Positions 29,425-58,849 of a DNA stretch of 64,000 nucleotides are shown here, piece after piece. Origin of the DNA: a virus; IMG/VR virus record IMGVR_UViG_3300042507_004023; one strand, given 5' to 3'. Both the position numbers and the translations under genes were made by a program. How positions within the stretch are numbered: position 1 is the stretch's first letter; the number at the start of each line of letters is the position of its first letter. A model generated the notes under the pieces. It did not search any database and was not told where the DNA came from. It saw nothing but the letters and a program-made list of their open reading frames with translations.

Positions 29425-30072
29425 ATGAAACTATTCTGCGACATTAACGAGGAAATTCAAGTTCTAACTGAAGAGAACGAGCCAGGTAAGAAAAACTACT
29501 TTATTGAAGGCATCTTCCTGATGTGCGATCAAAAGAATCGCAACGGTCGTGTCTATACCTTTGAAATGATGAACAAGAAGGTTAACGAGTATAACAACAG
29601 TTTTGTAAAGCAAAAGAGAGCGTTCGGTGAATTGGGACACCCCGAGGGCCCAACCATTAACCTAGAGCGTGTCTCACATATGATTACTGACCTTTACTCC
29701 GATAAGAAGAACTTCATAGGTAGAGCCAAAATTATGGACACCCCATACGGTAAAATTGTTAAAAATTTGATTGATGAGGGTGCAAAACTAGGCGTTTCAA
29801 GCCGTGGTATTGGTTCTTTGGAAGAAAAGAACGGCGTAAACTATGTGAAAGACGATTATCAGTTAGCCACGGCTGCGGATATTGTAGCCGATCCATCGGC
29901 TCCAGAAGCCTTTGTAAGAGGTATTATGGAAGGAAAAGAATGGATTTGGGAAAGTGGCAGATTGGTAGAAAGAGATCTAGAAGAAATTAAAAAGAGCATT
30001 CAAAAAGCCTCTTCCCGAAAACTAGAAGAAACAAAAATTCAAGCATTTGAAAGGTTCTTACGGAATCTTTAA
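29425..30072 (+). CDS. gp21: Prohead protease gp21
   Basis: IEGIFL..DQKNRNGRVY, GELGHPEGPTINLERVSH, LGVSSRGIGSL, ADIVADPSAPEAFVRGIMEGKEW. Confidence 0.97.
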   Translation: MKLFCDINEEIQVLTEENEPGKKNYFIEGIFLMCDQKNRNGRVYTFEMMNKKVNEYNNSFVKQKRAFGELGHPEGPTINLERVSHMITDLYSDKKNFIGRAKIMDTPYGKIVKNLIDEGAKLGVSSRGIGSLEEKNGVNYVKDDYQLATAADIVADPSAPEAFVRGIMEGKEWIWESGRLVERDLEEIKKSIQKASSRKLEETKIQAFERFLRNL

Positions 30073-30122: not shown

Positions 30123-31229
30123 ATGGACTCATTTAAGAACGAAGAAGTAGAAGAAATCCTCGAAGAAGAGGAAACCACAACCGAAGCAGCACAAACTGAT
30201 TCGGAAGAAGTAGTCGTAACAGACGAAGAAACCATCGAAGAGGATTCGGCTGCTACTTTGAAGGCTAATGTTGCCGCAAAGCAAGCCAAGGGAGATAAGA
30301 CTAATCTTAAGTCTGCTCCTGCCGCTGCTGGATCATCAAAGTATGCGGGTCTTTACAAGGATGGAACAGGTAAGGGAGTTGTAATTCCTGAACCAGTTGC
30401 CACCGATGGATCTGCTTCTGCCGACAAGCAAATGAAGTTGGTGGACGCAAAGCGTTCTGGTAAGACTGAAGGAGTTCAAGTTCATATGGACGCTATGTTC
30501 AATGGAGAAGAACTAAGTGAAGACTTCAAGAACAAGGCTTCTACCATTTTTGAAACCGCTCTCAACGAGCGTGTTCAAGTTATTGAAGCCGAAATTAAGG
30601 CTGAATACGAGAATCGTCTCATCGAACAAACTGAAACGATGAAGACTGAACTCACTCAGCAACTTGATTCATACCTCTCATATGTTGTAGAGGAATGGAT
30701 GGAAGAAAATAAACTTGCTGTAGAGAAGGGTCTACGCACTGAAATCGCTGAAGAATTTATTGAAGGTCTTCGCGGTCTCTTCTTGCAGCATAACATTGAA
30801 GTCCCACAAGGCAAGACTGATCTGCTAGATCAAATGGCAGAGAAGGTTGAAACTTTGACCGCTTCCTTGAATGAAGAAATTAATAAGACTCTCGACATGA
30901 AGAACAAAATTGCTGAACTTGAAAGACAACAACTAGTTGCTTCAATGAGTGAAGGTCTTGTTGATACCGACAAGGAGCGTTTCTTAAAGTTGGCGGAAGG
31001 CGTTGGGTTTGAAACCAATAACGAGTTCCGTTCCAAGTTGGAAACAATCCGCGAATCATACTTCGGAGACTCAGGCAAGACCGTATTGAATGAGAATGTC
31101 GAAGATGATATGACGGTTGCAGAAAATGCCCCCGCGAACGAACAAGAAACCTTGTCCGAATCAATGGAAGCATACTCACAGATGTTGTCTCGCTTGAGCC
31201 GCACAAAGGCTCCAAGCAAGAAGAACTAA
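30123..31229 (+). CDS. gp22: Prohead scaffolding protein gp22
   Basis: LSEDFKNKASTIFETA, VDSYL.YVVEEWMEENKLAVEKGLRTEIAEEFIEGL-type motif, KLETIRESYF. Confidence 0.95.
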   Translation: MDSFKNEEVEEILEEEETTTEAAQTDSEEVVVTDEETIEEDSAATLKANVAAKQAKGDKTNLKSAPAAAGSSKYAGLYKDGTGKGVVIPEPVATDGSASADKQMKLVDAKRSGKTEGVQVHMDAMFNGEELSEDFKNKASTIFETALNERVQVIEAEIKAEYENRLIEQTETMKTELTQQLDSYLSYVVEEWMEENKLAVEKGLRTEIAEEFIEGLRGLFLQHNIEVPQGKTDLLDQMAEKVETLTASLNEEINKTLDMKNKIAELERQQLVASMSEGLVDTDKERFLKLAEGVGFETNNEFRSKLETIRESYFGDSGKTVLNENVEDDMTVAENAPANEQETLSESMEAYSQMLSRLSRTKAPSKKN

Positions 31230-42530: not shown

Positions 42531-42571
42531 AGGCGTTCCTCCTGTTTATTTATGAAAACCTAAATACCAAG

Positions 42572-43453
42572 GTGAAAACATTTAAACACTATCTTGAAGA
42601 AAAACTCGTTATACCAGGTCAAGGAAAGCGATACGGTCAAGTTGTCTTTTTGGCTGGCGGTGCAGGTTCGGGTAAGGATTTTGCTGTAGCCAATTTTATA
42701 GACTCCACAGACTATAAAATCCTTGATCCAGACGCGGTAAAAGGACCGTATTTAAAGTGGAACGAACTACAAAAAAAATATCCTGAACTTAGAGGCAGAG
42801 ATCAAAGAAATCCTGAGGATGCCGACTTTGTTCATAGGTTTTTGGGAAATCAAGTTAAACTAGACGATAAAATATTGAGTAGTTTCTTTTTTGGTTTGAT
42901 GCATAAAACAGATAAAACCACGCTTCCCAACATTTTGTTTAACAGAACTTTCAAAACAAAAGCAGACTTTGAGCGATTGTTGCCAAGTCTAATTTCGGTG
43001 GGTTACAAAAAAGAAGACATGCACTTAATTTGGGTGCTAACAAACTACAGAGTTGCAATTCAAGCAAATCTTGAAAGAACTAGAACGGTTCCAACAACCG
43101 TATTAGTTCAAACGCATGGTGGCGCAGCACAAACCATGAAGAGTTTTTTGTTTGATAACTATCCATCTAATCTGATAAATGGAGATGCGTATGTGATTCT
43201 TGGCGGTAAAGAAAATACCATATTTTTCAAACCACCACAAGGCGCATCAACCACAAGACAGGTGGTTGCTGGCGGTGAAATAATTCCAAAACCTAGAGTG
43301 GTTTCAAAATTTCAGTATGTTAAAGTCAAAGACGCAAGCCATCCGTTTAAACCCGCTGTGGCTTTATCGAACACTGTTCTCAGATGGATACTTCAAAATT
43401 CTCCCGATCAAGAAGCGATAGAAAAATATCTGAGTCAACAAAACTCCAACTAA
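42572..43453 (+). CDS. P-loop kinase (zeta-toxin/AAA_33-like) with capsid-targeting-like leader
   Basis: VFLAGGAGSGKDF Walker A, ILDPDAVK; N-terminus MKTFKHYLEE; CTAAATA 5 nt upstream. Confidence 0.7.
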   Translation: MKTFKHYLEEKLVIPGQGKRYGQVVFLAGGAGSGKDFAVANFIDSTDYKILDPDAVKGPYLKWNELQKKYPELRGRDQRNPEDADFVHRFLGNQVKLDDKILSSFFFGLMHKTDKTTLPNILFNRTFKTKADFERLLPSLISVGYKKEDMHLIWVLTNYRVAIQANLERTRTVPTTVLVQTHGGAAQTMKSFLFDNYPSNLINGDAYVILGGKENTIFFKPPQGASTTRQVVAGGEIIPKPRVVSKFQYVKVKDASHPFKPAVALSNTVLRWILQNSPDQEAIEKYLSQQNSN

Positions 43454-50456: not shown

Positions 50457-50678
50457 ATGCCTAAGCGATGCCTTGATCGTTTCGATATGGAAGCCGAGCG
50501 TGAGTCTGCTGCTATTCGCAGGCTTGCGCCTCACATCTGCAAGCCGTTCGGTTGGAATCGTGGTATCCTGAAGCAGCGTCGTATGCACAAAGACGGTGAA
50601 ACCCGTGTTGAGTGCCGAACCATCAAGCAAACTTTTACCCGAGGTTACAATGCGCCCGTGTATCAAGTGCGGGATTGA
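50457..50678 (+). CDS. Small basic early protein
   Basis: First ORF after the promoter. Confidence 0.55.
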   Translation: MPKRCLDRFDMEAERESAAIRRLAPHICKPFGWNRGILKQRRMHKDGETRVECRTIKQTFTRGYNAPVYQVRD

Positions 50679-50862
50679 AATTCCCGTGATTCGTTTGGAA
50701 GCACTTCCGCTTACGGAAACTTGCGTGAAGTGTTCTAGCGTTCGTGCCTACAAGGGTTTTATGGATTGGCAGCACAAGACTGCACCCGACCTTGTAATGG
50801 TCAATCCTGATGACAGAGAGAATCTGCGTCGGGCTCAAGCAATTTCTGACCGAAGGAGATAA
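50650..50862 (+). CDS. DksA/TraR-type C4 zinc-finger protein
   Basis: CIKCGIEIPVIRLEALPLTETCVKC matches CxxCG..IP..RL.A.P....C..C. Confidence 0.8.
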   Translation: MRPCIKCGIEIPVIRLEALPLTETCVKCSSVRAYKGFMDWQHKTAPDLVMVNPDDRENLRRAQAISDRRR

Positions 50863-50864
50863 CT

Positions 50865-51326
50865 ATGTCATTTGTATCAATGTTATATGGTGAAGGCAAT
50901 AAACCGTATTCCATTTCTTATAGTGGTGGGTCAACCTACACTACACAAACTTACTGTGAACCGCCGCAATGGAAACTTGCAAACACCATGACTACGGAGT
51001 TTGCTCCAAGCATTAATGGTGCTACACATACACAACCACTTGCCGAATTCAACGGTGGCGTGTTCAACGGATTCGCAGAAGGACTTTGGATTTATCGAGT
51101 GTTCCTGAACGGGGAACTTGTAGCCACCTATCAATTTCAAGATCAAGCATTTTGCATTCCTATTGAGTTTGACCGTGTGGAAGGTGTGTGTATGAGTGTT
51201 TCTCTTTCTCCCTCATTCGCGTTTGCTAACGACGAACCACCACCGCCAATTCCATCACCCGCGTCTATTGTTATTCTGATTTGTTCCGCCCTTTTTTCTC
51301 TACGAAAGACCTCTCGCAATGCGTAA
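50865..51326 (+). CDS. Protein with PEP-CTERM-like C-terminal sorting motif
   Basis: IPSPASIVILICSALFSLRKTSRNA; AGGAG SD. Confidence 0.65.
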   Translation: MSFVSMLYGEGNKPYSISYSGGSTYTTQTYCEPPQWKLANTMTTEFAPSINGATHTQPLAEFNGGVFNGFAEGLWIYRVFLNGELVATYQFQDQAFCIPIEFDRVEGVCMSVSLSPSFAFANDEPPPPIPSPASIVILICSALFSLRKTSRNA

Positions 51327-51879
51327 TTCACTACTCGCCTCTACCGTGTCCTCTACCGTGTTTGTTCTCGCAGCAACGAATGTCTCTGAAGCCACTTTGA
51401 TTTCTTTCTCGCAGGTTATTACAAACAATACTGCAAGCACTCAAAGTTATGAAATCATTCAGTCCACACCCACTTCAATCAATTCGGCTACAGCAGGTAT
51501 GCGTGGCTCGTTGAGCATTGTGCTTACCGATTTCAATCGAAATGGTGCTACCTTTCAGTCGGATGGTAGCAATCTTTACACCGCATTTGCAAATTCCACA
51601 CTAGTTCGGTCTGCGTTCGTTCCTGCTGGTGGTTTTTTGCTAACCGCACTTCCTCGTGAAATGGCTTCATCCGACAACTATTTCGGCACACCTGTTTGGG
51701 AGCCGTTGTCGCCTTCGCTTGGAACCATTAACAGCATTGAAATGCGATGGAACTTCCGTCTGTCTGCGGGCGACCAAGTTGCCATTTCGGGAACTTTTGA
51801 AGTTGCTAGTATTCCCGCTCCTGCTTCTGCCGCCATTTTGATTTGTTCGGCAATCTCAGCCCGACGAAGAAGGAGATAA
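51319..51879 (+). CDS. Secreted protein with signal peptide and PEP-CTERM-like sorting motif
   Basis: N-terminal MRNSLLASTVSSTVFVLAATNVSEA; C-terminal IPAPASAAILICSAISARRRRR. Confidence 0.75.
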   Translation: MRNSLLASTVSSTVFVLAATNVSEATLISFSQVITNNTASTQSYEIIQSTPTSINSATAGMRGSLSIVLTDFNRNGATFQSDGSNLYTAFANSTLVRSAFVPAGGFLLTALPREMASSDNYFGTPVWEPLSPSLGTINSIEMRWNFRLSAGDQVAISGTFEVASIPAPASAAILICSAISARRRRR

Positions 51880-52305: not shown

Positions 52306-52589
52306 TTTCTACCCTCTTGATTTCCGTTTTCTGCTCTCTGCTTACTGCGGTAGGTGTAAACTACGGCATACAGAAACTACACTTTCGTAAACTGAAAACG
52401 CAGATGCGAACCCGCGAGGCGTATAGATTAGACAAAATCGAACAAGCCGCCCTAAACCGTGATTCTCCCTCATGGTTTAGACACAAGCGACAATACAAGA
52501 TTTTAAAGTCTTGTTTCACACCAACCGTGCTTCCTCCTCCGATTATTACTAGTCCTCAAGAAAGAAACAGAAAGATGCATCAACCATGA
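52302..52589 (+). CDS. Small membrane-anchored basic protein
   Basis: N-terminal hydrophobic helix; GAGGAG SD. Confidence 0.55.
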   Translation: MISTLLISVFCSLLTAVGVNYGIQKLHFRKLKTQMRTREAYRLDKIEQAALNRDSPSWFRHKRQYKILKSCFTPTVLPPPIITSPQERNRKMHQP

Positions 52590-52858
52590 TTAAAGCAAAG
52601 TTTAAGTCTCGTTACGGCGACCTCCGAACAGTTACTGAAATCGCAACAAACACCTATCGGATTGAAGGCAAGTCTGGATTCACTCGTGGTGGGGGTGATG
52701 CAGGCTATCAGATGTTTGATTTTGAGGGCGGGCCGTTCATTGAAACAGGTATGCCGCTCTCGCTCTTGATTGACAACGCGAATGGAACTGTTGAACAGAT
52801 TACTCCGATGCCGACCGGCAAAGAAGGTTACGCTGCGGTGGAAATCGTAGTCAAGTAA
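52586..52858 (+). CDS. Hypothetical protein
   Basis: ATGA-coupled ORF ending before a terminator. Confidence 0.6.
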   Translation: MIKAKFKSRYGDLRTVTEIATNTYRIEGKSGFTRGGGDAGYQMFDFEGGPFIETGMPLSLLIDNANGTVEQITPMPTGKEGYAAVEIVVK

Positions 52859-52883
52859 ACTAAAATTTAAAGTTTTACCTGCG

Positions 52884-52915
52884 AACAACCCTCATTCACG
52901 AGGGTTGTTTCTTTT
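52884..52915 (+). terminator. Rho-independent terminator
   Basis: AACAACCCTC-ATTCAC-GAGGGTTGTT plus T-rich tail. Confidence 0.8.
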
Positions 52916-52941
52916 CCTAAATATTCGAATAGGAGGTTGTC

Positions 52942-53289
52942 ATGTATACTGAAGAGCGTCCTTGGGGCAATTTTACAATTTTATACGAAGACCAGAACAT
53001 GAAGGTGAAGCAAATTATTGTTCATGCAGGTCAAAGATTGAGTTACCAATATCATAAGCACCGCCAAGAGCGATGGACAATTGTGGAAGGTGAAGGAGTA
53101 TTCACCTTGAATGGCGTAGACCGTGCGGTGCGTTCTGGTGATGTTTTAAGCATTGCGGTTGGTGACGCGCATCGCATCAGAAATACAGGCAAAGGCAACT
53201 TGATTTTTGTGGAAGTGCAGTTGGGCGAATCTTTTGCTGAAGACGACATCTACCGTATAGAGGACGATTATAACCGCGCTAGCACATGA
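52942..53289 (+). CDS. Cupin, mannose-6-phosphate isomerase type II C-terminal domain-like
   Basis: ERPWGNFTIL, KVKQIIVHAGQRLSYQYHKHRQERWTIVEGEG, HRIRNTG..LIFVEVQLG....EDDIYRIEDDYNR; CTAAATA at 52917. Confidence 0.9.
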   Translation: MYTEERPWGNFTILYEDQNMKVKQIIVHAGQRLSYQYHKHRQERWTIVEGEGVFTLNGVDRAVRSGDVLSIAVGDAHRIRNTGKGNLIFVEVQLGESFAEDDIYRIEDDYNRAST

Positions 53290-53699
53290 AATCATTCAAG
53301 CACCATCTCTCAGAACAGGATGCAACTCCAAAACCTCGTGGCGAGTATTTCGTCAGTCGCTTTAACATTAGCGGAACTGTTGTGAGTGCTGTCGCTGTAT
53401 ACGAAAGACCCATCAAGAACTACAAGTATAAAACTAAAGTTTGGAGATGGCGGGTTCGTATAAAGACAAGTGAGGGGTGGATGCTGATGGGCTTTATCGG
53501 AAATGGACAACGACAGGAAGAACTGCCTCCGCTTCGTGTTGGAGATGTTGTGGAGATTAGAGACCTTGTTTTGTCTAGAGTCACGGGTGGAGATTGGGCA
53601 CAACAAAACAAGGTAATCGGCAAACCTCTTGATTACCGTTCCAACCTGTTCTCTCGTCAACTACACGGCAAGATTAAAAGAGGTGCAACCTCTGTATGA
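53286..53699 (+). CDS. Putative capsid-internal protein (CTS leader), possible OB fold
   Basis: MKSFKHHLSE leader; PLRVGDVVEIRDL. Confidence 0.6.
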   Translation: MKSFKHHLSEQDATPKPRGEYFVSRFNISGTVVSAVAVYERPIKNYKYKTKVWRWRVRIKTSEGWMLMGFIGNGQRQEELPPLRVGDVVEIRDLVLSRVTGGDWAQQNKVIGKPLDYRSNLFSRQLHGKIKRGATSV

Positions 53700-54469
53700 A
53701 ATCATTCAAGCACCATCTTGCAGAAGCAATCGCAAATCCAACTATCTGTGATTTGCTTAAACTGCCTACCGCTAAAGCGTTTATTGAGCGACTTGAAATA
53801 TCCAAAGACCTGAAAGCGTATTGGAATGCGTTAAACCTGTGGTTTGACCAAAGTGGCGACACAAAACGGTTCATGGGCAAGATTGTTGAGATGGGTATGT
53901 GCCCAAACAAAGCGAAATGGGCTTCTTGGTCTGGCAAAGGATATCGCGGATTAACCAAACCAAAAGAGTGGGCAAAAAAGTTACAGTATACTGGCGAAAC
54001 TGTGGTTAAAGAGAAATATCTTTTTTTGGTAGCAAACGCAACCTATCAAAGCCGATATACAGCCCAATCTTGGACAAACGATTTTGCTGTTGCTATGTCG
54101 TTTGCTAACAGCGATCTAGACATTCCTGTAATAATGGAAATTGAACTAACTCGTGAAAATACTTTATTCTCTCCTGAATCAAGCGTAACGCTTAGTGGTT
54201 TTGGAGAAGCGGAAATTATACGAGTAGGCAATAGACCCACAAAAGTTAAGGTGTATGTGAATATACAATTTATGATTGAATTCTTTTGCTACAGGATATT
54301 GGGAAACGGAGGAACTAAAGGAGTTCCTAAAGCAGAACAAACCTCTTGGTGGACGAAACAATTTGAAGGATTATTTTCTCAACTTGGTGATGAAAAGTTT
54401 GTGAAAGACCTTATGTCTAATCCTAAAATCAAAGCAATAATTAAACGAGAAGCAAAGGTTAGCATATGA
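53696..54469 (+). CDS. Putative capsid-internal ADP-ribosyltransferase-like protein A
   Basis: MKSFKHHLAE leader; YRG ... QSWT ... A..FA ... GEAE (R-S-ExE). Confidence 0.65.
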   Translation: MKSFKHHLAEAIANPTICDLLKLPTAKAFIERLEISKDLKAYWNALNLWFDQSGDTKRFMGKIVEMGMCPNKAKWASWSGKGYRGLTKPKEWAKKLQYTGETVVKEKYLFLVANATYQSRYTAQSWTNDFAVAMSFANSDLDIPVIMEIELTRENTLFSPESSVTLSGFGEAEIIRVGNRPTKVKVYVNIQFMIEFFCYRILGNGGTKGVPKAEQTSWWTKQFEGLFSQLGDEKFVKDLMSNPKIKAIIKREAKVSI

Positions 54470-54936
54470 AATCATTCAAGCATCATCTCACCGAACTATT
54501 TGACCAACCGTTTCCGTTTGCGTCTTCTTCAATTATAAATGGCGATGTGGTGAAGTATGTGTATAGAAACGATGCTACCTTTGTGGTTATAATGTTTTTT
54601 GACCTTGGTAACGGAGGTTGGGATGTGATATTCTCACGAAACGGTAAGGTTGCTGTAACAGGACAAGGTGATGCTGGTCGTGTGTTTGCTTCCGTGTTAG
54701 ACGCATTTCAACGATTCTTGCGGGACTATAAGGATAAAGCAGACACCATTAGTTTCACGGCTGAAAAGCAGGAACTAAATCCTGCAACAAGCAAGTATAC
54801 TACAGATTCTCGTGTTACGCTGTATAAGGCTATGATTAAACGATATGCGGAAGCAAACGGATATCGGATGCGAAGCAACATTCCGATATCAGGAATGGGC
54901 AAAGGTAAACAACTGTTCGTGTTGGAGAAAATATGA
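54466..54936 (+). CDS. Putative capsid-internal protein (CTS leader)
   Basis: MKSFKHHLTELFD leader; TGQGDAGRVFASV...ISFTAEK...SRVTLY. Confidence 0.6.
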   Translation: MKSFKHHLTELFDQPFPFASSSIINGDVVKYVYRNDATFVVIMFFDLGNGGWDVIFSRNGKVAVTGQGDAGRVFASVLDAFQRFLRDYKDKADTISFTAEKQELNPATSKYTTDSRVTLYKAMIKRYAEANGYRMRSNIPISGMGKGKQLFVLEKI

Positions 54937-55742
54937 AGTCTTTTTTCTCATTCATTAACGAAGCGGTGGAAAGCGGATTGCGAGATTCCGACTATAATCC
55001 CGATTGGCATGAACCTGAGTGGGTTAAAACTCATAAGCCTAGTGTATGTGATTTGTTGTCGGAACCCACACCAGCAATGATGGTGATTGGAACAAAACTT
55101 GTGCAAAAAACAGGAGATCCTTGGTTTCAATACGCACCTAGCGAAACCGTAAAATTTTTGCAAGCGTTGCAGTTGCATTTAACTCAAGTTGGTGGAGATA
55201 AGGGTATGGGGTCAGTAGGTATAGGATTGGTAAGAGCAGCCGCGAATTGTTCTCGCCGCGCTTCTTGGAGCATGACTTCTGAGAAACGCTTGTGGCGCGG
55301 TAAAGGAATCACACTTTCCGAAGCAGTCAGATTACTTAGAGGCAAAAAACATCACACCTCAACAATTTCTGGTGTTGGCTATTGTGTTGGAGTGGATGAA
55401 ATTTACACTTCCAAGTATCCTATACAATCGTGGAGCACAAATTCGCAAGAGGCAGTAGAGTTCGCATCAGGTGCTAGAAAGAATGCTGGAACTTGGTATC
55501 TTCCTCGCGTAACAGACGGCATGCTTAAGAAAGATAACCCTAGCGTTTGGTGTGTAATGGAGTTGACTGATTTCAAACCACAGGAAACCTTGTTTGGAGA
55601 ATTCCGAGGATATCCTGTCAGTAAATCTGTATCTCGTCTAGAAGAAGATGAAACAATCAGAATTACCAATCGTCCAGTTAAGGTTCGTTATTGGTTTTTA
55701 CAAGAACAGTTTGAAGACATGTTGCTTGCAGGACTATTATAA
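54933..55742 (+). CDS. Putative capsid-internal ADP-ribosyltransferase-like protein B
   Basis: MKSFFSFINE leader; WRG ... QSWS ... A..FA ... EEDE. Confidence 0.62.
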   Translation: MKSFFSFINEAVESGLRDSDYNPDWHEPEWVKTHKPSVCDLLSEPTPAMMVIGTKLVQKTGDPWFQYAPSETVKFLQALQLHLTQVGGDKGMGSVGIGLVRAAANCSRRASWSMTSEKRLWRGKGITLSEAVRLLRGKKHHTSTISGVGYCVGVDEIYTSKYPIQSWSTNSQEAVEFASGARKNAGTWYLPRVTDGMLKKDNPSVWCVMELTDFKPQETLFGEFRGYPVSKSVSRLEEDETIRITNRPVKVRYWFLQEQFEDMLLAGLL

Positions 55743-55746
55743 TCTT

Positions 55747-55878
55747 ATGAAATCTTTTAAACAACACATTTCTGAAAAGTGGACGCAATCGTATAAGCGT
55801 AGCATTGATTGTAGCCGACCAAAAGGCTTTTCGCAGCGAGCACATTGTCAAGGCAAAAAGAAGCGAGCAGGCAAATGA
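55747..55878 (+). CDS. 43-aa capsid-internal microprotein with Cys pair
   Basis: MKSFKQHISEKWTQSYKRSIDCSRPKGFSQRAHCQGKKKRAGK. Confidence 0.7.
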   Translation: MKSFKQHISEKWTQSYKRSIDCSRPKGFSQRAHCQGKKKRAGK

Positions 55879-56810
55879 AAGACTTTGAAGTGTTCTCGGA
55901 GGAAACCAACAATGCTCGCACCGAGCGGATTGTAAAGAATCTGTTGCCTGCCATTAGAAACGGTGACATGAACGCGCAAATATGTGCGATTGCATCACTT
56001 GAATTTGGAGACTTCATGCACTTCCTACGAGCACTCGGTGGAAACATAGGCCCATCAGGAACTGTGATAAATCTTGGTTCAACTGGCGCACACATCTACA
56101 CGCTTATAAATGAAAAAGAATCAAAGGATATAATGTATTTTTGTGCTTATCTGCGTAATCATCTGTCTGCTTTTTTTGGTGATTTAGCAACCACAGCGTC
56201 GGTAAACTTGAAAAATCGCTACTATCCTACATTTAAATCCATGTTGGATTGTTCATCTCGTAAATCTTGGACAAAACCAGAATCAGGGTTTGTGTATCGT
56301 GGAAAGGCTACAGGCATTTCATATCTTGCAAAAATGGGTGAGTGGCGCACCGAAGGCGAGTATTCGGTATGCAAAGGCAGTTACACAAGTCAGTATCCCA
56401 TGCAATCTTGGTCGTATAGCAGAACAAAAGCGGAACTGTTTGCTGATACGCGAATTGGTGATATATCGTTATGGATAGACCGTCTTGGTGAGATTGGTGG
56501 AATAGGCAAAGAAGCAGGCGGCGATTGGGAGAAACAGGTATTGAAACAAACTCAACCGCTAGGCATACAACGAGGCGATTTGGCTGTGCCTGTGGTGATT
56601 CGGTGTCCTGTGAATCCACGAGAATTCTTGTTCTCTGCTGACTCAAGCGATAAAATTAAAGTAGCCTTGAAATTGTTTACTAAAAACACGAAAGAACGAG
56701 AAACGGTGCGAGTTTCTAGTCAACCTGTTGCTGTGGAATACATGGTTAAAAATGTTAAGGGTGTTGACATGAAAACAGCGATTGCACAATGGCGAGAAGC
56801 CAACGGATAA
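55875..56810 (+). CDS. Putative capsid-internal ADP-ribosyltransferase-like protein C
   Basis: MKDFEVFSEE leader; YRG ... QSWS ... A..FA ... KERE. Confidence 0.62.
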   Translation: MKDFEVFSEETNNARTERIVKNLLPAIRNGDMNAQICAIASLEFGDFMHFLRALGGNIGPSGTVINLGSTGAHIYTLINEKESKDIMYFCAYLRNHLSAFFGDLATTASVNLKNRYYPTFKSMLDCSSRKSWTKPESGFVYRGKATGISYLAKMGEWRTEGEYSVCKGSYTSQYPMQSWSYSRTKAELFADTRIGDISLWIDRLGEIGGIGKEAGGDWEKQVLKQTQPLGIQRGDLAVPVVIRCPVNPREFLFSADSSDKIKVALKLFTKNTKERETVRVSSQPVAVEYMVKNVKGVDMKTAIAQWREANG

Positions 56811-56871
56811 TATTTAAAAATTAACACAGTCTAGGTAAAACCCTAAATACCATACCAACAGGAGAATTGCC

Positions 56872-57516
56872 ATGTCAGGAAACGCACGAAGACTAGCCGA
56901 AGCCGCAAATCAGATTATTAACTCACAGCCTATTAATGAAGCCTATAAAGCCGGAGACAAGGTAAAGGTTCCACACAAGGGCAAGATGGTAAAAGGCAAG
57001 ATTGTTCGCTACGATGATGGCGGAACAGACAAGGCAAGACAGTCGGGTGGAGGATATGTGGTGGATGTTGGTGAGCCTGCAAGCATCCTAGTTCCTGCAA
57101 ACAAGGTGGTTAAAGAAGCCGCAAATCAGATTGATGAAATAAGTAAAGCAACCAAGGATGCGTATGTCGCCAAGCGTGGCTCACAACTCTCATCCATGTT
57201 GAGCGGACATACTAAGGGCAAGCAACTCACAGGCAAGCAGCAAGCCAATGCCGTGAAGGGCATCAAGCAGGCTATGGGTGTGAAGGAAGAAACTGCTGAG
57301 ATTACTGAAGCACCATACACTCCTGCTAACGATTACGAAGGTGAAATGGCAATGACTCAACTAAAGTCGGTTATTGAAAAGGCAACCGAGACTCTTGCAA
57401 TGCTGAAGCCAGAAGCCAAAATGGAAGCATGGGTGCAAAGCAAGATTACCTTGTGCGACGAGCATATCTCGTGCGTTCGTGATTATTTAAAGCACACACC
57501 AGGTGCGGTGAGTTAA
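56872..57516 (+). CDS. Modular late head protein with repeated (L/I/V)-x-E cleavage-type sites
   Basis: LAE, INE, VKE, IDE, ITE linkers; C-terminal DYEGEMA..QL...EAWVQSKIT module; CTAAATA at 56843 and AGGAG SD. Confidence 0.65.
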   Translation: MSGNARRLAEAANQIINSQPINEAYKAGDKVKVPHKGKMVKGKIVRYDDGGTDKARQSGGGYVVDVGEPASILVPANKVVKEAANQIDEISKATKDAYVAKRGSQLSSMLSGHTKGKQLTGKQQANAVKGIKQAMGVKEETAEITEAPYTPANDYEGEMAMTQLKSVIEKATETLAMLKPEAKMEAWVQSKITLCDEHISCVRDYLKHTPGAVS

Positions 57517-57813
57517 ATGAACAAAAACTACGAACAAATCTTGGAGTCGGCTGATGCGGCTTTAGCCCGCTTAAACGAACTATACTATCGTAAAGCACAT
57601 CCAACCAATCCGATTCTCATTCCTGCAAAGCGAGTATACGACGAGTTTTTCAAGTATGTGAAGAATAGCGGGATCATGTTCAACCAACTCAAAGCGGAAC
57701 AGGCGGTTGAAGAGGTGTTTCGTGTTCGTCAATCAACGAGGTCGTCAGGCAGCACAGGAGAACTAGTGATGACTGCTTTTTTGGTTTACAAGCGATATAT
57801 GGGAATTAGTTAA
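57517..57813 (+). CDS. Hypothetical late protein (possible internal protein)
   Basis: MNKNYEQILE...RLNE; abuts the previous stop. Confidence 0.55.
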   Translation: MNKNYEQILESADAALARLNELYYRKAHPTNPILIPAKRVYDEFFKYVKNSGIMFNQLKAEQAVEEVFRVRQSTRSSGSTGELVMTAFLVYKRYMGIS

Positions 57814-57964: not shown

Positions 57965-57992
57965 TTGACAAAACTGTAAAATCGGGTATAAT
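57965..57992 (+). promoter_or_regulatory. Consensus sigma70-like promoter TTGACA-N16-TATAAT, 7 nt before ATG 58000
   Basis: Perfect hexamers. Confidence 0.85.
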
Positions 57993-57999
57993 TGAGGAT

Positions 58000-58410
58000 A
58001 TGGCTACTCATCCTCTCAGCGTTCTTGTTCTTGACGATGATTCGCAGCGACACGCTGCTTTCGTGGCAAACAATCCGAATTGTCAGGTTCATTCGGTTTA
58101 CACCTGCAAGGAGGCGGTGGCTGCGATATACGATCAGCATTTTGATGTGATTTGCTTCGATCACGACTTGGGATGGAACACCGAGCAGAACACCTACGAG
58201 ACCTCTATTCCGTTCGCACAAACGGTGCGTCGGTTGATTGATGAGGGCGGCATTCTTGATTCCGTAATCATGTTGGTGCATTCCGCAAATCCTGTGGGGG
58301 CTCAAGACATTCTGAGTTACTTTGCGAGAACCATGAATCACTCATTCAAGGTTCCGTGGGCTTGGCGAATGCCGAATCTGTTTCACACCATTTGTGCTGA
58401 TGGAACTTGA
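58000..58410 (+). CDS. Cyclic-phosphate-processing receiver (cREC)-like domain protein
   Basis: VLVLDDD, FDVICFDHDLG, HSANPVGAQDI. Confidence 0.75.
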   Translation: MATHPLSVLVLDDDSQRHAAFVANNPNCQVHSVYTCKEAVAAIYDQHFDVICFDHDLGWNTEQNTYETSIPFAQTVRRLIDEGGILDSVIMLVHSANPVGAQDILSYFARTMNHSFKVPWAWRMPNLFHTICADGT

Positions 58411-58849
58411 TCGCGTCTACACTTTTGAGTGTGCCGCCTCGTTCGGCACTCTGCCACAATCCGTGGTGAACACCTTGTTCACGGACGGTCGCCATGCCGC
58501 AGGCTTTTTAGAGCGACAATTGGAAATATGGTTTCCAAACTTAAAGTTCATGGACGGTCGCGGCTTCGATCATCAGGACGAGCAGGGAACACGCTATGAA
58601 GCGAAATGCTTCACTCCACGCGGAGCCGACTATTCTGCATCGAAATTTAAAGGTGCAGGCAGGCGAATCAATCTGACAGAACACGCTGAAACCGCGAAAC
58701 AATTAATTTACATTATGTGTGATGTTGTGGATTTTCCTGTGGTTCATGTGCTGTTTAAGCGTGGCGAAACCTTGTTGGCTAGATATCCGAACGGCAAGAT
58801 TCCGTTCAATCAACGATCACAACTTTTTATCGCAGGAGATACTTGTTAA
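58394..58849 (+). CDS. Putative PD-(D/E)XK restriction-endonuclease-fold protein
   Basis: GFDHQDEQGTRYEAKCFT (D...ExK). Confidence 0.5.
   Translation: MLMELDRVYTFECAASFGTLPQSVVNTLFTDGRHAAGFLERQLEIWFPNLKFMDGRGFDHQDEQGTRYEAKCFTPRGADYSASKFKGAGRRINLTEHAETAKQLIYIMCDVVDFPVVHVLFKRGETLLARYPNGKIPFNQRSQLFIAGDTC

Follow-up and report, generated by a model that had tools for sequence, protein, structure and literature searches.

What are the three diverged proteins encoded at 53696–56810 of the viral DNA record IMGVR_UViG_3300042507_004023 (IMG/VR; 64,000 nucleotides [nt], called the window below), and where would they act? A reading made from the sequence alone had taken them for a diversified set of injected ADP-ribosyltransferases (ARTs) of the R-S-ExE type. 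We consider it probable (about 0.63) that the three genes do encode diverged R-S-ExE ARTs of a previously unnamed family, which are packaged in the phage head, injected and directed at arginine, and which modify host targets. The window encodes homologues of the large terminase, tail sheath, portal, gp21-type prohead protease, gp22-type scaffold and gp23-type major capsid protein. In its capsid protein it shares 61% identity with Pelagibacter phage HTVC008M and about 58–60% with Methylophilales and Synechococcus phages of the Kyanoviridae. The stretch was found nearly whole in at least 14 lake or freshwater metagenome runs (2018–2025), which assigns it to a freshwater phage. The source is an uncultured T4-like freshwater myophage, a relative of Kyanoviridae-type phages.

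We compared the three proteins, designated ART paralogs 1, 2 and 3 in gene order, with each other. Pairwise BLASTP gave E values of 7e-11 (1 vs 2), 1e-8 (2 vs 3) and 9e-5 (1 vs 3) at about 23% identity, so that the three open reading frames (ORFs) are genuine paralogs on the plus strand, as had been proposed. The proposed motifs C-x-x-(K/R)-x-x-W, (Y/W)RG, Y(Q/T)SxYxxQSW(T/S) and AxxFA were found in all three, and so was the ExE motif followed by (I/T)(I/V)R(V/I)...P, with GEAE, EEDE and KERE at the ExE position. E.LF was exact in two of the three, paralog 1 reading ENTLF. The interval, described as three ARTs, also holds two unrelated genes, those of the 156- and 43-amino acid (aa) proteins in Table 1. 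In paralog 2, the sequence-only reading had located the catalytic-type Arg in LWRG, and the profile alignment places it there; the downstream LLRG, which MAFFT had chosen, was rejected. For paralog 3, the start codon is most likely ATG 55875 (311 aa, MKDFEVF...): it forms an ATGA overlap with the stop codon of the 43-aa gene, and the homologues start with MKDF.... It was preferred to TTG 55845.

The family lies outside current domain collections. None of the three proteins had a significant match in Pfam, PHROGs or NCBIfam, and no Pfam ART model or ModB model (PF26816) matched them at E ≤ 1. The sole Pfam line was to Tad6, a Thoeris inhibitor that binds ThsB; it scored far under the threshold (E 0.078; 13.5 vs 27 bits), recurred in one of 143 other members and was rejected as chance. 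Sequence-profile searches of the PDB returned only a repeat-protein artefact (Tako8) and chance matches. A weak line to 2kxi_A, the Neisseria ART NarE (E 0.47), in which the YRG is aligned, was not used as evidence. A word-indexed search found 15 relatives. When 1.84 billion cluster representatives were searched exhaustively with a profile, 380 of them matched at E ≤ 1e-3, 119 at ≤ 1e-10 and 39 at ≤ 1e-30. Judged by these matches, the family comprises at least 380 clusters at 50% identity, all from metagenomes. Its members are 200–460 aa long, and any given Pfam domain occurs in at most 1 of 143 of them. A protein-language-model search returned mostly viral hypothetical clusters and one DRAT cluster at 0.90, which we regard as a lead only. 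Literature searches found no description of the family, nor of ARTs with the N-terminal leader described below.

We then counted conservation in 163 family representatives less than 50% identical to one another. At the catalytic columns (R84, S125, E171 and E173 of paralog 1), Arg was found in 158/158, Ser in 159/161, the first Glu in 156/159 and the second Glu in 159/159, and all four residues were retained in 150 of the 155 full-length members. Other columns were nearly fixed as well: G85 (157/158), Y117 (159/162), Q124 (153/161), W126 (157/161) and F136 (154/161). The position after the Trp of the Ser motif was Thr or Ser in 158 of 161. On these counts, the motifs of the three paralogs are not due to chance. 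Two cysteines in the N-terminal helical part, C18 and C69 (encoded at about 53747 and 53900), are conserved at about 90% (128/141 and 133/155) with equivalents in the other two paralogs; a role in a disulfide or a metal site is possible.

An AlphaFold2 model of paralog 1 built from an alignment of 143 sequences reached a predicted local distance difference test score (pLDDT) of 93.5 and a predicted template modelling score of 0.89. A single-sequence model had a pLDDT of 41.7, and only the alignment-based model was used. In that model, Arg84 lies in strand 80–88, which is followed by a beta hairpin; Q-S-W-T lies in strand 123–127, followed by helix 130–137, strand 143–151 and a loop; and E171-x-E173 stands directly before strand 174–177, which is followed by strand 182–189. 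This modelled order of elements is that of R-S-E ARTs. When the model was compared with 48,161 representative chains by VIA-align, ranks 1–16 were all ARTs, with Z scores of 8.4–5.2 over model residues ~23–190. The best was Vis (4xzj, Z 8.4, 137 aa, 3.5 Å), followed by Tre1 (6drh_B, 7.6) and a Listeria ART-ARH toxin (7.2); CPILE-a, XopAI, Certhrax, C2-I, C3bot2, HopU1, VIP2 (5.9), ART2.2, C3stau2, ExoS and SpvB (5.2) were also among the 16. Foldseek likewise placed Vis at the top of its PDB matches (probability 0.91, E 0.019); cholera toxin A1 and C2-I came further down. Against the BFVD viral models it returned annotated ARTs of phages and giant viruses together with head-protein fusions. Because all 16 top matches were ARTs and the motif positions agreed, the case for the ART fold holds as had been proposed. 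By the modelled fold, the Arg strand, the Ser motif and the ExE, these proteins belong to the R-S-E (cholera-toxin-like) ART clade.

ExE goes with arginine as acceptor in cholera toxin, iota, C2, VIP2 and Alt, and QxE goes with asparagine in C3. Because the motif of the family is ExE, not QxE, with the first Glu in 156 of 159 representatives, the acceptor is most likely arginine. An alternative is that packaged ART-fold enzymes do not modify host proteins at all, being instead nicotinamide adenine dinucleotide (NAD+) glycohydrolases or enzymes that place ADP-ribose on nucleic acids or small molecules, for example blunting NAD+-derived defence signalling or marking DNA or RNA. The near-invariant first Glu, generally known as a mark of arginine-directed protein transferases, argues against this, as do the best fold matches, which are all protein-modifying R-S-E toxins or effectors, with DarT, RES and KptA-type enzymes absent from the top rows. 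On the other side, the ART superfamily includes NADases and members that modify nucleic acids (PMC9503650), and the basic mature proteins would touch DNA. We regard this alternative as unlikely, if the strongest of those considered.

Where would these enzymes act? All three belong to a run of six consecutive genes (53286–56810) whose products have an N-terminus of the type MK(S/D)F...(L/I/F)xE. In T4, the capsid-targeting sequence is MKTYQEFIAE and the internal proteins that carry it are basic (PMC8442874); the protease gp21 cleaves after L/I-x-E, targeting depends on leader residues 4 and 7, and processing depends on residues 8 and 10 (PMC9026906). The array leaders keep M1, K2, an aromatic residue at 4, Leu or Ile at 8 and Glu at 10, ART paralog 3 departing from this with F-S-E or S-E-E, and the presumed cleavage site would be L-A-E in paralog 1 and I-N-E in paralog 2. 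The mature array products are all predicted to be basic (isoelectric point [pI] 8.3–10.8), the mature ART paralogs being 28–34 kDa with a predicted pI of 8.3–9.3. Across the family, a regular expression found the leader pattern at residue 1 in 81 of 163 representatives, and many others have close variants. A gene for a gp21-like prohead protease is present in the window (Table 1), and this protease itself has an N-terminus similar to the array leaders. Of the proposed diversified injected set, the T4-type leader on every copy, the protease gene and arrays of such genes in related phages were found, and by analogy with T4 the proteins are probably injected.

Alternatively, the proteins might be active ARTs that are not packaged and work at a late stage on phage or host proteins of the producing cell, their common N-terminus reflecting common descent or a translation-initiation region. 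T4 ModA and ModB are such non-packaged ARTs according to the T4 annotation, the cupin encoded by the first gene of the transcription unit has no leader, and packaging is suggested by the likeness to the T4 leader only. However, the leader also stands on the 137-, 156- and 43-aa proteins, which are unrelated to the ARTs and to one another, and on a kinase encoded elsewhere in the window (42572–43453); it is therefore a portable module, which speaks against common descent of the genes as wholes. Furthermore, it keeps the aromatic residue at 4 and, except in paralog 3, L/I-x-E at 8–10, positions defined by T4 genetics (PMC9026906), and the prohead protease has a similar N-terminus. We therefore hold a non-packaged role to be improbable, slightly more so than the preceding alternative. 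It is very improbable that the proteins are catalytically inert internal proteins with an ART-like fold, which might fill the head by condensing DNA or by scaffolding, or inhibit a host defence protein stoichiometrically. T4 IPI* does work by binding rather than catalysis (PMC3012670) and the sub-threshold Tad6 line would fit an inhibitor, but that line is as weak and isolated as described above. Moreover, 150 of 155 representatives less than 50% identical to each other retain the Arg, the Ser and both Glu, which is hard to explain without catalysis.

It had also been suggested that the three ARTs carry different N-terminal targeting domains. This was not borne out. All three have the same type of leader, and the helical region after it is a conserved core of the family, containing Cys18 and Cys69 and lying inside the residues aligned with known ARTs (23–190). 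The paralogs vary instead by insertions after the helix that follows the Ser motif (about 25 aa in paralog 2 and 45 aa in paralog 3), by a longer loop before ExE in paralog 2 and by a C-terminal helical extension in paralog 1 only. The insertions, the ExE-side loop and the extension are plausible determinants of specificity.

Taken together, we propose that packaged, injected ARTs would work as follows. The six leader genes would be transcribed late as one translationally coupled unit (52942–56810). The leader of 9–10 residues (MKSFKHHLxE type) would bring each protein into the scaffolding core of the prohead, like the T4 capsid-targeting sequence, and the gp21-like protease would then cut after the Glu of (L/I)-x-E. 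The basic mature proteins would remain in the head with the DNA and be injected at infection, and in the host cytoplasm each ART would use NAD+ to ADP-ribosylate a different host target, with specificity set by the variable insertions adjoining the ExE loop.

Several points weigh against this proposal. The Z scores of individual fold matches (5–8) are middling when taken singly, and the Ser motif Q-S-W-(S/T) is a variant of the classic S-T-S. The leader of paralog 3 has Phe or Ser at P3 (F-S-E or S-E-E), its relatives having F-N-E, and the protease specificity assumed for the source phage is carried over from T4. Outside metagenomes, tblastn of three members against 50,697 GenBank phage records gave no match, nor did the family profile match the cultured phages HTVC008M, Melnitz-3, Mosig, S-BM3 and S-SRM01; as a positive control, the same profile matched five of five IMG/VR contigs.

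The organization of the array was consistent with a single expression unit. Between the cupin gene and ART paralog 3, five of the six gene junctions are ATGA overlaps and the sixth is a 4-nt gap, an arrangement by which the genes are taken to be translationally coupled. The heptamer CTAAATA occurs 19 times in the window against nine expected, a number reached in none of 100 shuffles; 17 copies are on the plus strand, and many stand just 5′ of ORF starts, including the sheath, scaffold and tail-tube-position genes. The exact T4 late promoter motif, TATAAATA, was not enriched in the window (three copies vs two expected). A strong terminator-like hairpin and one CTAAATA precede the cupin gene, and the next CTAAATA comes after the array, at 56843 before the following gene; this arrangement suggests a late transcription unit spanning 52942–56810. 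In one lake metatranscriptome, contigs cover parts of the unit, although contigs cannot prove transcription. The positions of these features are collected in Table 1.

Table 1. Genes and signals of the leader-bearing array, with the prohead protease and scaffold genes of the window (positions in nt).
Feature	Position	Strand	Remarks
gp21-like prohead maturation protease	29425–30072	+	phrog_207, E 2.5e-78; enzyme expected to remove leaders
gp22-type scaffold	30123–31229		phrog_237, E 1.7e-74
Terminator-like hairpin	52883–52910	+	11-bp stem, T-rich tail; closes the upstream unit
CTAAATA, late-promoter-like	52917–52923	+	19 nt 5′ of the cupin gene
Cupin, mannose-6-phosphate isomerase C-terminal type	52942–53289	+	PF01050, E 5e-25; leaderless, acidic; heads the unit
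137-aa protein	53286–53699	+	Leader MKSFKHHLSE; predicted mature pI 10.4; no known family
ART paralog 1 (P0001), 257 aa	53696–54469	+	Leader MKSFKHHLAE; R84, S125, E171-x-E173; C-terminal helical extension 190–257
156-aa protein	54466–54936	+	Leader MKSFKHHLTE; weak match to phrog_16075 (unknown function)
ART paralog 2 (P0002), 269 aa	54933–55742	+	Leader MKSFFSFINE; LWRG (R122), S166, E238-x-E240
43-aa protein	55747–55878	+	Leader MKSFKQHISE; predicted mature peptide of 33 aa, very basic, pI 10.8
ART paralog 3 (P0029), 311 aa	55875–56810	+	Leader MKDFEVFSE(E); VYRG, QSWS, ERE

The cupin gene overlaps the first leader gene as ATGA. Downstream of the array, the next unit (56843–57813, plus strand), with CTAAATA at 56843, encodes basic proteins of 214 and 98 aa. 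The 214-aa protein starts with MSGNARRLAE-A, in which an L-A-E site like those of the array leaders is present without the MKSF start. Outside the main array, the kinase gene mentioned above (42572–43453, plus strand) has a GTG start and a CTAAATA at 42560, and encodes a 293-aa P-loop kinase (Zeta_toxin, PF06414, E 3e-5) with the leader (M)KTFKHYLEE; it may be a further head-packaged enzyme.

Eight IMG/VR loci encode members of the family, and on related viral contigs the members lie within runs of leader-bearing genes. At one locus, four members stand in a row after three other leader-bearing genes, and the same 119-kb contig (G001) carries a second array, making six members on the contig in all. 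One of these six (G001 69652–70491, minus strand) has an in-frame TGA inside the match; the copy may be broken, the TGA may be a sequencing error, or it may be recoded. A 177-kb contig, 98% complete, has two members, and its capsid protein is 76% identical to that of the window.

One further locus (L002) was 97–98% identical to the window over 52553–54944 and 55746–56839 and lacked 54933–55745. The gap is exactly the gene of ART paralog 2, from its own ATG to the ATG of the next gene, and the two alignment blocks overlap by 13 nt within the common leader codons. The difference between this locus and the window is a clean leader-to-leader gain or loss of one cassette. A joint across 54933–55745 that lacks the cassette was found in none of the contigs of three lake DNA runs (word share with the window, 0.70–0.95), and these runs carry the cassette. 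Tentatively, the leader-coding 5′ ends (ATGAAATC(A/T)TT...) might serve as built-in recombination joints of a cassette system through which T4-like freshwater phages would gain, lose and reshuffle injected effectors, with the ART family (up to six paralogs per genome) as main payload and each paralog disabling a different host defence or takeover target at injection; we put this forward as a possibility, with clearly less confidence than the enzymatic assignment. At window position 54464, a lake-metagenome contig joins 23 nt resembling the 3′ end of the 156-aa gene directly to the leader start of the same gene, which may mean that a strain has its genes rearranged or duplicated there, or that the assembly went wrong at the repeated leader.

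Among known systems, T4 Alt is the closest functional analogue, T4 IPI–III are closest in delivery logic, and Vis and Tre1 are closest in structure. T4 Alt is packaged in the head, injected and Arg-specific. It is an R-S-ExE ART of a T4-type phage; the prohead protease processes it, and its delivery accompanies that of the DNA (PMC9026906, PMC9503650). The link to Alt, ModA and ModB drawn in the sequence-only reading holds at the level of the superfamily, whereas at the level of the family no sequence relationship was found. Searched with the family profile at E ≤ 10, the T4 genome gave no match. A comparison by hhalign with a small ModA/ModB alignment brought the (Y/W)RG into line, as well as the Ser motif and the helix that follows it, and this match was weak (E 1.2e-4, probability 55%, 56 columns). 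Unlike the T4 enzymes, the present ARTs are about 250–310 aa long, carry a leader of the internal-protein type and are present in each phage with two to six paralogs.

The T4 internal proteins likewise have a 10-residue leader (MKTYQEFIAE), ending like that of paralog 1 (MKSFKHHLAE) in L/I-x-E, and their mature products are basic, diverse and unrelated, share the leader only and come from a variable locus (PMC3012670, PMC8442874). In contrast to half of the present array, they are not ART-fold enzymes, IPI* being an inhibitor of a restriction enzyme. Vis of Vibrio splendidus and Tre1 of Serratia are small single-domain Arg-directed R-S-E ARTs with the same order of Arg strand, Ser strand with helix, and ExE. 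They differ in being only 15–16% identical, with no match at the sequence level, whereas the present family has the Ser motif QSW(S/T) and two conserved N-terminal Cys; they are also secreted or type VI toxins rather than proteins in a phage-head context. Head-packaged ARTs have been predicted in general terms for many myoviruses (PMC9503650), and the MuF, portal and polyvalent-head ART fusions described by Iyer, Burroughs, Aravind and colleagues share the idea that myoviruses package ARTs in the head (PMC9503650, PMC5512222); the BFVD matches include such fusions. The present ARTs differ in being unfused proteins of 200–460 aa with no other Pfam domain, and by analogy they would be targeted through a cleavable 10-residue leader.

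These results point to a sizeable ART family that the current Pfam, PHROG and NCBIfam models miss, linked to the delivery tag of T4 internal proteins and arranged in multi-copy, cassette-like arrays in abundant freshwater phages. If active, its members would offer naturally injected effectors, ready to use and diversified in their targets, and their substrates could point to host functions or defences of importance to lake bacteria. How such a payload locus evolves is illustrated concretely by the exact leader-to-leader indel.

Some other genes near the array should be mentioned. Upstream on the plus strand, the ORF at 50596–50862 encodes a small DksA/TraR-type C4 zinc finger (PF01258, E 3.5e-5, slightly under the Pfam cut-off). 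Two neighbouring ORFs in 50865–51879 (plus strand) have PEP-CTERM-like tails, in which IPSPAS... or IPAPAS... is followed by a hydrophobic stretch and basic residues at the end; such tails are unusual in phages and might give a hint of the host. Downstream, 57965–58849 (plus strand) contains a gene for a cREC_REC receiver-domain protein (PF20274, E 3e-11), overlapped by a second ORF after it, whose 151-aa product belongs to no known family. A perfect sigma-70-type promoter (TTGACA, 16 nt, TATAAT; 12/12) stands 5′ of the cREC_REC gene, and the two genes resemble an early gene pair placed directly after the late unit.

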